Source: a virus | Lineage: Duplodnaviria; Heunggongvirae; Uroviricota; Caudoviricetes | Length of the DNA stretch: 45,327 nt | Virus record (IMG/VR): IMGVR_UViG_2737471992_000006 | Strand: one strand, 5' to 3' | Shown here: piece by piece, positions 35,160 to 45,327 of the stretch | Numbering within the stretch: the first letter of the stretch is position 1 | Layout of the letters: every line of letters begins with the position of its first letter | The notes under the pieces: generated by a model | Seen by the model: only the letters and a program-made list of their open reading frames with translations | Database searches by the model: none | Told to the model about the DNA's origin: nothing | Position numbers and translations under genes: made by a program

Positions 35160-35988
35160 GACGATGCCCTCCGCTGATATTCAGGAGACGGTGAATATGA
35201 AAATTAGCCTTATCCGCCAGACGAATACGTTCAGCCTGCAAGTTAAGAAGGGTTTCTACCAAAACCTGATGCGCCTGCGGATCCGAAAGAGTTACCTTGC
35301 GCAGAGCACGTAGTGCAGTTGTTACATAACTGAGTTTATGTAAGTCTTCATCATTCAGACGAGTGAGGGCTGGGACAGTAGCCATGATGGCAGCCTCCTT
35401 GATCGGTGAAATACTTCCATCACCGGAAACGCCAATTTCGCTGGTGGTGAACTGAACGGGGTTGGCGTAACCGGTGATCAAGGAAACCGGCGCATCTTTC
35501 GATGCCCCCGCCCAGCCCACCATAACTTTGATGTGAGCAAATGCGGACGATAAAAAAGACGCTGGCGCGTCATATATCGCCTTGATCAATTCCAGGACGC
35601 CAATCCCGGCACCCGCTTTATAAGGTGCCTGAACAGTGTAACGTCCCGGAATGGCAGAATCAATGTGCTGGTGGTCCTTCACACTCAACAAAATCACGCC
35701 TGAATTTCCACAAAGGACTAAAGCACTCATGCGGGTAGTCTTTGCGAAGATAGATAACGCGCTGTGTTTCTGGCTCCCAACGAATAACATGAACATAAAG
35801 TCCTCTTCTGTCACGAAACCAGCGGTTAAGTTCCTGCACAACTCGCCCCCCACAGTCAGGTAAAGTTCTCTGTGGTTACTTACAGCCAGGTGATTTGGTA
35901 ATCTGCATTCATGCCGTAACAACAGGTGTTCAGCGACGCTGGCCACCAGCTGTTGCGACAAACGGTTATTTGCCGTTAAACTGTTCAT
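35152..35988 (-). CDS. hypothetical 278-aa protein in the early-right operon
   Basis: ATG overlaps the upstream stop (ATGA); no recognisable motif (no Walker A box). Confidence 0.6.
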   Translation of the reverse strand: MNSLTANNRLSQQLVASVAEHLLLRHECRLPNHLAVSNHRELYLTVGGELCRNLTAGFVTEEDFMFMLFVGSQKHSALSIFAKTTRMSALVLCGNSGVILLSVKDHQHIDSAIPGRYTVQAPYKAGAGIGVLELIKAIYDAPASFLSSAFAHIKVMVGWAGASKDAPVSLITGYANPVQFTTSEIGVSGDGSISPIKEAAIMATVPALTRLNDEDLHKLSYVTTALRALRKVTLSDPQAHQVLVETLLNLQAERIRLADKANFHIHRLLNISGGHRHA

Positions 35989-43048: not shown

Positions 43049-43330
43049 ATGAACACCTTGTTTTTACTGATGGCTGAATTCAATACCCCTAACATTGAAC
43101 TCTCAGCAGTTAGCCAAAAGTACTTTGGCATGAGTCCAGCCACGGCAGAAGCAAAAGCAAACGCTTGTAAGTTGCCCGTTCCAACATATCGCATCGGCAC
43201 ATCACAAAAAGCAAAACGTTGCATCAATATTCAGGATCTTGCGGAATACATAGACAAAAGACGAGAAGAAGGACGTATCGAGTGGGAACAGGTCAGAACA
43301 GGCAAACAGAAGGGCAAAGAACATCACTAA
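43049..43330 (+). CDS. PrtN/excisionase-like DNA-binding protein (Xis candidate)
   Basis: 93 aa from the ATG at 43049 (GGAG Shine-Dalgarno); ...LPVPTYRIGTSQKAKRCINIQDLAEYIDKRR pattern of PrtN/AlpA-type excisionases. Confidence 0.6.
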   Translation: MNTLFLLMAEFNTPNIELSAVSQKYFGMSPATAEAKANACKLPVPTYRIGTSQKAKRCINIQDLAEYIDKRREEGRIEWEQVRTGKQKGKEHH

Positions 43331-43332
43331 AG

Positions 43333-43421
43333 AAAAAACGCATAAAGGCCAATGCCGTTCACTTAAGATGAGCGGCTCTGCATTTCACCAGATAATGGTG
43401 TTTTGATATCTTAATTTCCCT
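43333..43421. repeat. left arm of a ~90-bp imperfect inverted repeat flanking the CoiA-like gene
   Basis: Reverse complement of 44585..44674; core tttcaccagataatggtKttttgatatcttaatttccct matches at 38/39, plus cgttcacttaag and aaaaaacgc blocks. Confidence 0.8.
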
Positions 43422-43520
43422 CGGCTCTGATAGTCGTGGGCATTTTGTTATGAACACAATATCCAGAACATCCAGCAGATGTTCCTGTCATTTCGGGATG
43501 GCTACGAGGATAAGACAGCA

Positions 43521-44555
43521 TCAGAAAAACATTTCAGCTTTTTTACCATCAAATATCCACCCGCTGGATAAGATTTTCATATTGCTAGCATAAGTAAAAG
43601 TAAATTCTATCATTATCTTTTGTTTATCATTCGGATAGTCGAAAACCTCTAATAAAAAGCAATCTCCTATAAGTGAATAACAATGTATGCAACCGTTAGA
43701 TAAATAACAATCACTGTCTCTGTCCTTAACAGTACCAATTCCAGCCGCCCAGAGTTTTTTGTTATCCACGTGAGTGGCTATTAGTTCTTTGACATCAGAA
43801 TCACGAAAAGATAAAAACTTGACGAATACTGATTTACTGTAAACAGAAATCCCCCTGATAATTCCAGTTCGTTTTTTACATCTCCAGCATTTTGTAACTC
43901 GCGATTCTATTTTTGCAGTCAGCACATCCCCAACCTTTGGGAACCATAATAGCTTTCTGGCGAAAACACCCGCGATAAACTCCCTGACACTAATCCCAAA
44001 CTGCGGTAGATACAAGTCCCCATTTTCATTCTGACGCACACCAAAAACAGGTAAATCGTAGCTATGGTATATATCCCCACCATGCTCTTTACTTCCTTTA
44101 CGTAACTTTCGCAACCACAGTGCACGGACTCCTGATGCGATATATCGTTTTTGACGTTCTTTAAACTCATCGTCTTTTTGCGGTGATAGCTGTACTTCGA
44201 AAACCAGTTTCGCATTATTTCTGGTACAAAACACATCGGCAATCCATTCTTCTCCTGCTGGGGTCACCCCTTGTTTTTCGGTAGTAACTGACCAGCCAGC
44301 ATCACTGGCTAATTTTGCGATTAAGAATTTGAGATATAAATGTTCTGCGCTTTCTTTCGCATACAGGCAATCGCTTTTGGATTTATGGGAAAAGTAATAG
44401 TTATTAAGTTTACTTGTTTTAGGTATACCAAGCTGGCCACAGCACGACATAAACAAAGACTGGCTTTTATATGTCTGTTTAAGATGTTCCCATTCCTGAG
44501 AGTTAAATTCAAAAGAATGAATTTCTTTTCCGTTAAGTGACGCTTTTAGTGGCAT
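43521..44555 (-). CDS. CoiA-like (competence-protein-CoiA family) predicted nuclease
   Basis: 344 aa; N-terminal zinc-finger pattern F.SCCG...YFSHKSKSDC...KESAEHLYLK characteristic of CoiA proteins, then a PD-(D/E)xK-like core (IADV ... FEVQ); AT-rich gene. Confidence 0.7.
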   Translation of the reverse strand: MPLKASLNGKEIHSFEFNSQEWEHLKQTYKSQSLFMSCCGQLGIPKTSKLNNYYFSHKSKSDCLYAKESAEHLYLKFLIAKLASDAGWSVTTEKQGVTPAGEEWIADVFCTRNNAKLVFEVQLSPQKDDEFKERQKRYIASGVRALWLRKLRKGSKEHGGDIYHSYDLPVFGVRQNENGDLYLPQFGISVREFIAGVFARKLLWFPKVGDVLTAKIESRVTKCWRCKKRTGIIRGISVYSKSVFVKFLSFRDSDVKELIATHVDNKKLWAAGIGTVKDRDSDCYLSNGCIHCYSLIGDCFLLEVFDYPNDKQKIMIEFTFTYASNMKILSSGWIFDGKKAEMFF

Positions 44556-44584
44556 TCATGCTACCTGTATTTACCCTCCCAGCA

Positions 44585-44674
44585 AGGGAAATTAAGATAT
44601 CAAAAAACCATTATCTGGTGAAACGCAGTACCACCACACTTAAGTGAACGACATTATGCCTAAAGGCGTTTTTT
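44585..44674. repeat. right arm of the inverted repeat
   Basis: See left arm; the outer boundary (gcgtttttt) abuts the stop of the 57-aa gene. Confidence 0.8.
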
Positions 44675-44694: not shown

Positions 44695-44868
44695 TCATAC
44701 TGCTTTGCAACGACGAAGCTTACCCTGCTGCTCTTTACCAGAGACAGTAGCGTGAGTGAACGCATTAGGAGCAGCCTTCATCAGAACTTCAACAGCCGCA
44801 CCCATACCTACGAATGCTTTCATTGTGTCGAACTTAACCTGTGGCTTGGTTGCTTTTTGATCTTCCAT
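44695..44868 (-). CDS. 57-aa small protein, second gene of an AT-rich two-gene operon (not in the ORF track)
   Basis: ATG at 44868 preceded by GGAG (8-nt spacer); TGA at 44697..44695; 39 nt downstream of the 139-aa gene. Confidence 0.45.
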   Translation of the reverse strand: MEDQKATKPQVKFDTMKAFVGMGAAVEVLMKAAPNAFTHATVSGKEQQGKLRRCKAV

Positions 44869-44907: not shown

Positions 44908-45327
44908 TTACTCATCATCAATAGATGATACGCAATATTTATTTTTAAATTTAAGGTTCTTTGGCGTAACTTCATCAGATATATCAAAACCGTCCAGAAT
45001 TCTATTGAATGTAGCTTCTGGCATATCATCATGAACAAAAATCTCACCCGATCGCTGCTTTCTAACCATGTTATCCACTCGCCAAATTATAGCTTCAGCG
45101 TAAACAACATAACTTGGATGCTTGATAAAGCGATGATCACCAGAATTCAAGACGCAAGACGGATCGTGGGGGACACCATCCTTGATACTAGAAATATTAA
45201 CAACTAAAACACAATAACAATCGTTAACGGGGTAATAAACAGGATCATTACAAATCACATGAAGATGATTGCATGGCCCAGTTGGGGCAAGCACAGTTCC
45301 TTTCCTGTATGGCTGATAATCCGTCAT
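44908..45327 (-). CDS. 139-aa hypothetical protein, first gene of the operon (Cys/His/Asp-rich)
   Basis: Complete ORF (ATG is the last three bases of the window, TAA at 44908..44910); AT-rich; no recognised family. Confidence 0.55.
   Translation of the reverse strand: MTDYQPYRKGTVLAPTGPCNHLHVICNDPVYYPVNDCYCVLVVNISSIKDGVPHDPSCVLNSGDHRFIKHPSYVVYAEAIIWRVDNMVRKQRSGEIFVHDDMPEATFNRILDGFDISDEVTPKNLKFKNKYCVSSIDDE

Follow-up and report, generated by a model that had tools for sequence, protein, structure and literature searches.

A nuclease gene between IS4-type insertion sequence ends in an Escherichia coli prophage: a probable mobile insertion cassette

The window analyzed in this study, a stretch of 45,327 nucleotides from IMG/VR virus record IMGVR_UViG_2737471992_000006, is 100% identical to Escherichia coli NR3736 (RefSeq record NZ_AP040205) and contains, close to one end of a prophage, a gene for a CoiA-like nuclease between inverted repeats. 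We conclude that positions 43350-44656 of the window (1,307 bp) are in all probability a mobile insertion cassette (MIC), i.e., a nonautonomous derivative of an insertion sequence (IS) of the IS4 family (IS4 subgroup), with the nuclease gene as passenger, inserted in a terminator hairpin of the prophage. The terminal inverted repeats are homologous to known IS ends (84 to 84.5% identity over positions 1 to 72). No transposase gene is present: the sole long open reading frame (ORF) encodes the 344-amino-acid passenger, and a fossil of 47 codons with a stop remains. The target site duplication (TSD) comprises 10 bp at a second site and 11 bp in the prophage, compared to 10 to 11 bp for the parent IS. 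Furthermore, the unit occurs at two genomic sites, and the exact empty site is known for the one in the prophage.

Two other classes of elements were considered and rejected. A composite transposon does not apply, as only 152 nt and 72 nt of the IS are left and two complete IS copies are missing. The unit is also no miniature inverted-repeat transposable element (short, below ~0.5 kb, noncoding and multicopy), as it has 1,307 bp, an intact, selected ORF and one copy per genome.

A preliminary description of the sequence had pointed out repeats of ~90 bp that flank a gene resembling one for Gram-positive transformation. This odd structure in a prophage of E. coli would be fully explained by an IS-derived cassette in a split terminator. 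Within the IS4 family, MICs had in 2008 been reported only for IS231, and the MIC/passenger-gene modularity of IS231 had by then not been seen in other IS4 subgroups (PMC2266710). An enterobacterial example from the IS4 subgroup would join this short list.

Repeat arms and parent insertion sequence

A repeat search revealed inverted arms at 43351-43421 and 44585-44655 (71 nt, 86% complementary, 1,163 nt between them) and an outer inverted pair at 43333-43349 and 44658-44674 (17 nt, 82%), which is offset against the inner arms by a 1-nt indel. Pairwise alignment of the 39-nt core at 43383-43421 gave 38/39 matches with one mismatch, and a blastn of the upstream versus the downstream flank of the nuclease gene found this core with E = 8e-17. 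The similarity of the arms is far beyond chance. The sole long ORF between them lies at 43521..44555 on the minus strand (344 amino acids), and the GC content is 0.35 to 0.43 inside the cassette versus 0.47 to 0.54 in the upstream prophage genes. The nuclease gene has an excisionase-like gene of the PrtN family on one side and, on the other, the dusA end of the prophage, marked by a dusA fragment. Inverted repeats around one AT-rich gene, placed between an xis-like gene and the prophage end, had been noted in the preliminary description and were confirmed. The arm of ~90 bp given there is real but combines two distinct things, an inner part of 72 nt that is an IS end and an outer part of 17 nt that belongs to a split host terminator. 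The features of the locus are as follows (window coordinates):

43049..43330, plus strand: PrtN-family (excisionase-like) prophage gene; Pfam PyocinActivator PF11112, E = 4e-23; RefSeq coding sequence in NZ_AP040205; stop codon just 5' of the insertion
43333..43349, no strand: left half of the split bidirectional terminator; A-run plus left target-duplication copy CGCATAAAGGC at 43339-43349
43350..43421, plus strand: left terminal inverted repeat; corresponds to positions 1-72 of the IS4-like element; terminal 18 bp CAATGCCGTTCACTTAAG identical to the IS end
43350..43501, minus strand: full IS-derived left segment; IS positions 1-152, 84% identity (blastn); holds the dead transposase fossil
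43521..44555, minus strand: passenger gene for the 344-amino-acid CoiA-like protein; three parts, namely, a putative N-terminal Cys/His zinc finger, a PD-(D/E)xK core and a C-terminal 4-Cys domain
44556..44584, minus strand: 5' leader of the passenger gene; ribosome-binding site AGGTAG; its junction to the IS-derived arm is common to the second cassette lineage and a plasmid copy
44585..44656, minus strand: right terminal inverted repeat; inverted copy of the same IS end, IS positions 1-72, 84.5%; terminal 18 bp 16/18
44657..44674, no strand: right half of the split terminator; right target-duplication copy TGCCTAAAGGC at 44657-44667 plus T-run
44695..44868, minus strand: 57-amino-acid prophage gene; same orientation as the passenger gene; lost its terminator through the insertion

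The left arm matches ~2,400 E. coli records (2,363 genomes) at 83 to 85% identity under features annotated "IS4 family transposase," and ~44% of the complete E. coli genomes match the parent IS end. A full parent copy in ATCC 8739 (L003, 2004-3432) has 1,429 bp, an 11-bp target duplication (CCCTGACGGGG) and one transposase gene; an intact allele of the transposase (L026), the 445-amino-acid protein WP_094312392.1 of pE105-1, contains the Pfam domains Nterm_IS4 and DDE_Tnp_1. Both window arms align to one and the same parent end, the one at which the transposase gene terminates with its 3' end. On the left, window 43350-43501 aligns to IS positions 1-152 (84.2%), and on the right, window 44655-44585 aligns to IS positions 2-72 (84.5%). 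Identity to the IS end in the terminal 18 bp is 18/18 on the left and 16/18 on the right. The minus strand of the left segment (43359-43502) still holds a dead fossil of the last 47 transposase codons with an in-frame stop, translated as AIPK*QEHLLDVLDIVFITKCPRLSEPREIKISK... in the window and as TIPKRLEHLRGALEVVFITKRPRPSRPRAVKISK... in the IS. No other piece of the parent IS and no transposase were found in the window in the ORF list or by blastn. Judged from these alignments, the arms are not new repeats, and both are copies of the same end of the 1,429-bp IS4-family element.

Canonical K-12 IS4 was rejected as the parent, since the shared end spans only 34 nt and there is no significant match to the cassette; the parent IS is a distinct member of the IS4 subgroup. 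K-12 IS4 (L047, 1591-3016) and the element of the sil/cop region and the F plasmid (L003) have a terminal stretch of 34 nt in common (97%) and are otherwise barely alignable. The duplication of K-12 IS4 is 12 bp long (ATCTTGGTTCTG) and not a hairpin.

Elements of the IS4 subgroup have -AATR- ends, direct repeats of 10 to 13 bp, and a "spectacular" target specificity (PMC2266710). A preference for hairpin centers is documented for the parent IS by three independent insertions (L003, 2004-3432; L023, 1606-2594; L024/L026, 1604-3033), all located in the center of a GC hairpin and flanked by duplications of 10 to 11 bp. The targets read (duplication in brackets):

copM/silE: AAAAAAGCC[CCCTGACGGGG]GGCAAAAA
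tdk/adhE: AAAAAACGGT[CCCAGAAGKG]GCCGTTTAT
F-plasmid traM region: GAAGCCC[CGCGAAGCGGG]AACCC

The parent copy at tdk-adhE is 93% identical and carries an internal deletion. Both cassette targets are of the same hairpin type, AAAAAA[CGCMTAAAGGC]GTTTTTT in the prophage and AAAGCT[CCTTCAAAGG]GGCTT at the second site. With the 1,429-bp element known from copM/silE, the F-plasmid traM region and tdk-adhE, the cassette thus shares identical left terminal 18 bp, 84% identity over 152 nt and hairpin-centered TSDs of 10 to 11 bp; unlike this element, it has no transposase, and its second end copies the same end instead of the other end of the IS.

Insertion into the prophage terminator and at a second site

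The nuclease gene was found in 12 of 5,426 complete E. coli genomes, always at this prophage position. In hundreds of related dusA prophages, the flanks match in two abutting pieces, with an intact terminator and no cassette. This empty allele reads AAAAAACCCGCCTAAAGGCGGGTTTT, and both arms and the gene are absent together. The empty junction in the related prophage L001 (cactaaAGAAAAAACCCGCCTAAAGGCGGGTTTTCAAAAAG) is a bidirectional intrinsic terminator. RNA folding of the empty site yielded -16.2 kcal/mol for the plus strand and -19.0 kcal/mol for the minus strand (z about -5), and the folds of the two filled junctions are no better than those of shuffled sequence. The left flank of the cassette in the window ends with ...AAAAAACGCATAAAGGC and the right flank begins with TGCCTAAAGGCGTTTTTT; the two copies of the 11-bp target duplication, CGCATAAAGGC (43339-43349) and TGCCTAAAGGC (44657-44667), match at 9/11 positions.

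The outer 17-nt inverted repeat consists of the halves of a palindromic terminator that was split at its center, with 11 bp duplicated. Because the target is a palindrome, the direct duplication also reads as an inverted repeat, and the repeat therefore looks ~90 bp long. Of the interpretations offered in the preliminary description, symmetric regulatory palindromes apply to these outer 17 nt, the halves of the terminator destroyed by the insertion, but not to the inner arms. The polymorphism among related dusA prophages is as precise at the repeat boundaries as a cassette would lead one to expect, down to an exact empty site, and target duplications accompany the insertion at the prophage site (imperfect) as well as at the second site (perfect). 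The argument that the position is a classic cargo or defense hotspot is weak, as the related prophages carry only the terminator at exactly this position.

In other filled alleles, the duplication at the prophage site has drifted further (right copy TGTCTAAAGAC). At the right junction of the cassette-bearing alleles (window 44657-44668 versus L041-L043), the hairpin reads GCC...GGC in the window and GTC...GAC in H10407 and others, so that the stem is kept by a paired change, and, compared with the empty allele (CCCGCC/GGCGGG), each of the two flanks beside the duplication is shorter by 2 nt. Both observations suggest selection on the residual hairpin or a different ancestral terminator allele.

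A second cassette lineage (P0002), whose protein is 89% identical, was found in draft E. coli genomes in a different, unrelated island beside thiM/thiD, and one metagenome contig carries the same second site. This unit aligns end to end with the window cassette at 88.8%, shows the same internal breakpoints (IS 1-152 and ~1-91) and is flanked by a perfect 10-bp direct repeat, CCTTCAAAGG. The second site bears on the possibility that there is no unit at all, i.e., that two independent IS insertions or decay products happen to flank a resident prophage moron and that the arms serve only as terminators or regulatory hairpins. Each arm indeed has an inward-facing hairpin followed by a T-run (43386-43400), and the outer blocks are terminator halves. 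However, the gene and both arms are all missing from the empty allele, and the gene and arms recur with the same internal breakpoints at an unrelated locus with its own perfect TSD, which makes independent insertions very improbable.

Furthermore, an invertible DNA switch, in which recombination between the arms would flip the gene relative to outside promoters, can be excluded for practical purposes. Inverted repeats of 72 nt around a single gene without its own promoter would suit such a switch. Nevertheless, a single orientation is seen in the 12 complete genomes, in the IMG/VR copy and in the copies from the second site and the metagenome, no invertase gene is present among the neighboring genes, and the arms are only 86% identical and IS derived. 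This leaves the "invertible segment" of the preliminary description with next to no probability.

Relatives of the passenger were also found apart from complete cassettes. In an IncFII-type plasmid lineage (P0004, 75% amino acid identity), a partly deleted IS end (93% to the IS over 44 nt) lies upstream of the gene with the same 5'-leader junction, and in a Salmonella satellite lineage (P0003, 79%) the gene is present without IS sequence. No inverted repeats flank the homologues of 42 to 80% identity in six other contexts; therefore, the repeats belong to the IS and not to the nuclease family. This finding is relevant to an autonomous element, in which the CoiA-like nuclease itself would be the mobility enzyme (a homing endonuclease or TnsA-like) and the inverted repeats its recognition sites. 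In favor of such an element, the nuclease gene alone is precisely present or absent between conserved phage genes, the fold of its product resembles the R2 retrotransposon endonuclease domain, the homing endonuclease I-Bth0305I and TnsA, and the gene family is scattered over mobile elements. Yet the repeats are the ends of an IS with a DDE transposase, including a fossil of the transposase gene, TSD length and hairpin targets fit the parent IS, and the six contexts lack the repeats that such an enzyme would recognize. In addition, transposases of the IS4 family cut both DNA strands on their own, as in Tn5 and Tn10. We consider an autonomous element highly unlikely. Free-standing homing endonuclease genes of phages are similar to the cassette in being single nuclease genes that occur sporadically between conserved phage genes. 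The cassette differs from them in its terminal inverted repeats and target duplications, both derived from the IS; to our knowledge, homing endonuclease genes have neither.

The "self-contained mobile cassette" of the preliminary description is hence mobile, as indicated by presence/absence, TSDs and the second site, but not self-contained. The arms are IS ends, no transposase lies inside, and relatives of the nuclease occur without repeats; therefore, the nuclease is the cargo and not the engine.

Other insertions were sought in several collections. Searches of PLSDB plasmids and INPHARED phages for the cassette returned only IS ends or nothing. Scans for the cassette-arm pattern TTCACTTAAGN{20,23}AGATAATGGT gave one chance match in GTDB genomes and, in JGI metagenomes, five loci, namely, the known second site and four loci without similarity to the cassette. 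A scan of viral contigs (IMG/VR) found only the same prophage and distant relatives.

Several observations weigh against a mobile insertion cassette. Just two insertion sites were found across the genome, metagenome, plasmid, phage and viral collections; activity of the cassette is accordingly old or rare. At the second insertion, whose locus is variable, an exact empty site was not found. The TSD copies at the prophage site match imperfectly, at 9/11 positions in the window and 7/10 in other alleles, and on either side the adjacent flank departs by 2 nt from the empty allele that was sampled. Also, the arms have diverged by ~15% from the nearest known IS and by 14% from each other, and one terminal repeat has 2/18 mismatches (4/18 in the second lineage). 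In the chromosome record that is identical to the window, the two arms are the only matches and the IS end has no other copy, thus no obvious helper is present there. Mobilization in trans, finally, is something we infer from the ends, the TSD length and the hairpin targets. The two cassette lineages differ by 11%. Taken together, these data are best reconciled with an old element that moves rarely or is stranded by now and is inherited with the prophage; in the genome of the window the cassette is probably an immobile fossil.

For the origin of the mobile insertion cassette, we propose the following course. Both of its ends are inverted copies of the one IS end that lies next to the transposase C terminus, and the transposase gene appears to have been replaced by a single AT-rich passenger gene. 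The cassette may have started as a composite of two inverted IS copies around the gene, which internal deletions would have trimmed to 152 nt and ~72 to 91 nt. The insertion was most likely carried out by an IS4-like DDE transposase supplied in trans and hit the center of the terminator hairpin between the prtN/xis-like gene and the 57-amino-acid gene, duplicating 11 bp of the hairpin. Mobilization in trans by such an enzyme is presumed from sequence features, and the intact 445-amino-acid transposase allele (L026) is a candidate helper.

According to the account given in PMC2266710 (citing Chen 1999 and De Palmenaer 2004), MIC231 and other IS231-derived MICs of the Bacillus cereus group have in common with the present cassette the terminal inverted repeats of the IS4 family, the lack of a transposase, the single passenger gene, a target duplication of ~10 bp and a target preference inherited from the parent IS. 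The cassette differs from them in its parent, an enterobacterial element of the IS4 subgroup instead of IS231; in its ends, which both stem from the same IS end, are 72 to 152 nt long and include a transposase fossil; in its cargo, a predicted nuclease; and in that only two insertion sites are known.

The passenger protein and its relatives

In Pfam searches, residues 68-193 of the passenger protein matched CoiA_nuc (PF06054; E = 1.5e-8, 35.3 bits versus a cutoff of 20.3), and CoiA_N (PF25164) scored 13.4 bits, below its cutoff of 26.3 bits. Among 79 homologues, C38, C39, H57 and C63 of the N-terminal finger are invariant and H72 is nearly so. In the catalytic core, D107 is invariant, E120 and Q122 are nearly invariant, and E93 is invariant or near-invariant; D107 and E120-x-Q122 lie in model strands 103-112 and 115-122. 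These core residues probably correspond to D95/E105 of Streptococcus pneumoniae. The C-terminal 4-Cys domain has invariant or near-invariant C223, C226, C289 and C292. In the AlphaFold2 (AF2) model (predicted local distance difference test score, 92.5), the core adopts a fold for which both structure searches were topped by PD-(D/E)xK folds, namely, Bax1, the R2 retrotransposon endonuclease domain, Can2 and Hjc; further matches were RecU resolvase, restriction enzymes, TnsA and I-Bth0305I. The C-terminal 4-Cys domain matched none of the solved structures and none of the CoiA models, and a profile search of PDB sequences yielded nothing useful.

The ratio of nonsynonymous to synonymous substitution rates is ~0.2 in all close comparisons, including the one between the two cassette lineages; therefore, the passenger gene has been under selection. 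On sequence grounds, the family is one of stand-alone PD-(D/E)xK nucleases borne by mobile genetic elements and subject to purifying selection. A point against a functional passenger is that both cassette lineages are without the family-wide RYSKTxG motif, which may reflect partial decay. At residues ~278-292, the family motif RYSKTxGxxYxSNGC is replaced by DRDSD----CYLSNGC in the window, with a deletion, and by ARCNEDVGYY in the sister cassette lineage. The window allele also has HCY for HCD, with Y in place of the conserved D that follows the second CxxC. After capture, the C-terminal domain may have come under relaxed constraint.

CoiA is reported to be restricted to Bacillota, to be induced in and specific to competence, and to resolve D-loops in a structure-specific manner; it has a zinc finger as well as an atypical PD-(D/E)xK site and is partnered with RadA on transformation D-loops (bioRxiv 10.1101/2024.02.06.579203). 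The passenger is similar to CoiA of Bacillota in its CoiA_nuc domain above the Pfam threshold, its putative N-terminal Cys/His finger and its atypical D...ExQ site in a PD-(D/E)xK fold. It differs in its E. coli host, in the location of the gene on prophages, satellites and plasmids, in the lack of a link to competence, and in a C-terminal 4-Cys domain outside the CoiA models. The CoiA/PD-(D/E)xK assignment of the preliminary description consequently holds at the level of domains, where the profile check against PF06054 exceeded the gathering score and the AF2 fold agrees, but does not extend to orthology with competence CoiA, which was rejected on the basis of host, mobile-element setting and the different C-terminal region. 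The RefSeq label "competence protein CoiA" probably overstates what is known and calls for caution in annotation.

Homologues stand alone in accessory regions, namely, in P4-like satellites (beside TumE or colicin genes), in an IncFII-type plasmid, in a Pseudomonas aeruginosa element, in Tn7-like cargo beside AbiEi and MuF_C genes, and next to an AAA_15/AAA_21 ATPase pair. In Vogesella sp. LIG4 (L045, 1-9438), a member with 32% identity lies in Tn7-like cargo (TnsB/TniQ-TnsD) near AbiEi, a MuF_C protein and a pair of Peptidase_M78 and Beta_protein genes, a setting that resembles a defense island. The window protein had no match in PADLOC-DB 2.0 at E ≤ 1, and PHROG and NCBIfam scans were likewise without match.

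From its sequence and settings, the passenger can tentatively be regarded as a nuclease in conflicts between mobile elements, i.e., in defense, although the case falls somewhat short of an even one. With low confidence, we picture the cargo as a stand-alone DNA endonuclease that depends on metal and cuts foreign or branched DNA, with no part in competence. The gene could instead serve its mobile element as a recombination or repair accessory, as a resolvase of branched DNA or D-loops like CoiA. This alternative draws on the domain-level homology to CoiA, a demonstrated D-loop resolvase (bioRxiv 10.1101/2024.02.06.579203), and on the Holliday-junction resolvases Hjc and RecU among the fold matches; with no linkage to recombination genes in any of the contexts examined, a sporadic, accessory distribution, and a C-terminal 4-Cys domain that does not match CoiA models, it is rather unlikely.

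PD-lambda-4 of E. coli is a defense system that protects against phage (Vassallo 2022, PMC9519451), and its component PD-lambda-4B is the one published defense protein of E. coli with similarity to CoiA. Like the passenger, it is encoded on a mobile element of E. coli. Its match to the CoiA model is confined to the first ~63 positions (zinc ribbon), and it acts together with an ATPase, whereas the window protein stands alone and lacks a PADLOC match. Identity with PD-lambda-4B was rejected on account of this zinc-ribbon-only match and the need for a partner.

More specifically, the zinc-finger/PD-(D/E)xK/4-Cys protein might be a new single-gene antiphage or antiplasmid nuclease that was packaged between IS ends and dropped into terminator hairpins of other mobile elements, a speculative idea that we rate as improbable. 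If true, it would represent a route for the spread of defense genes not described for the enterobacterial IS4 subgroup. In any case, this conserved family of CoiA-like nucleases on mobile genetic elements is absent from current defense catalogues, and its members are candidates for phage challenge.

Expression of the passenger gene and further observations in the prophage

Neither the right arm nor the leader yielded a sigma-70 consensus promoter, and an Rfam search returned nothing in the cassette region. The passenger gene is co-oriented with the 57-amino-acid, 128-amino-acid and Panacea-domain genes at the prophage end. Because the terminator was destroyed and the cassette has no consensus promoter, read-through is the most likely source of transcription; the gene would probably be transcribed from the co-oriented operon at the prophage end, with the 57-amino-acid gene as the likely source. 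The weak inward-facing hairpin of each arm, followed by a T-run, may dampen this read-through. The start region at 44553-44560 (minus strand) reads ATGAATGCC. Four bases upstream, an out-of-frame ATG begins a mini-ORF of 8 codons, which extends across the real start and is kept in the other lineages.

The prophage end (window 44908-45327, minus strand, and beyond; L002, 7909-8897) encodes a hypothetical protein of 128 amino acids and a Panacea-domain protein of 190 amino acids on the same strand as the nuclease gene. Panacea is an antitoxin-type domain, and the two genes may form a toxin-antitoxin or defense pair; the 128-amino-acid protein gave only a weak PADLOC match (NsnC, E = 0.03).

In the related dusA prophage L001 (915-2143), an IS3-family insertion splits a hypothetical gene, and in the record of the window itself (L002, 3969-4568) an ead/Ea22-like gene is annotated as two pseudogene pieces. 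Elsewhere in the window, a C4 antisense RNA (82 bits) and the Hfq-binding small RNA isrK (64 bits) were detected above the Rfam gathering score at adjacent positions (35440-35527 and 35552-35628, both on the minus strand). This pair looks like a c4/ant immunity module of the P1/P7 type in the prophage.

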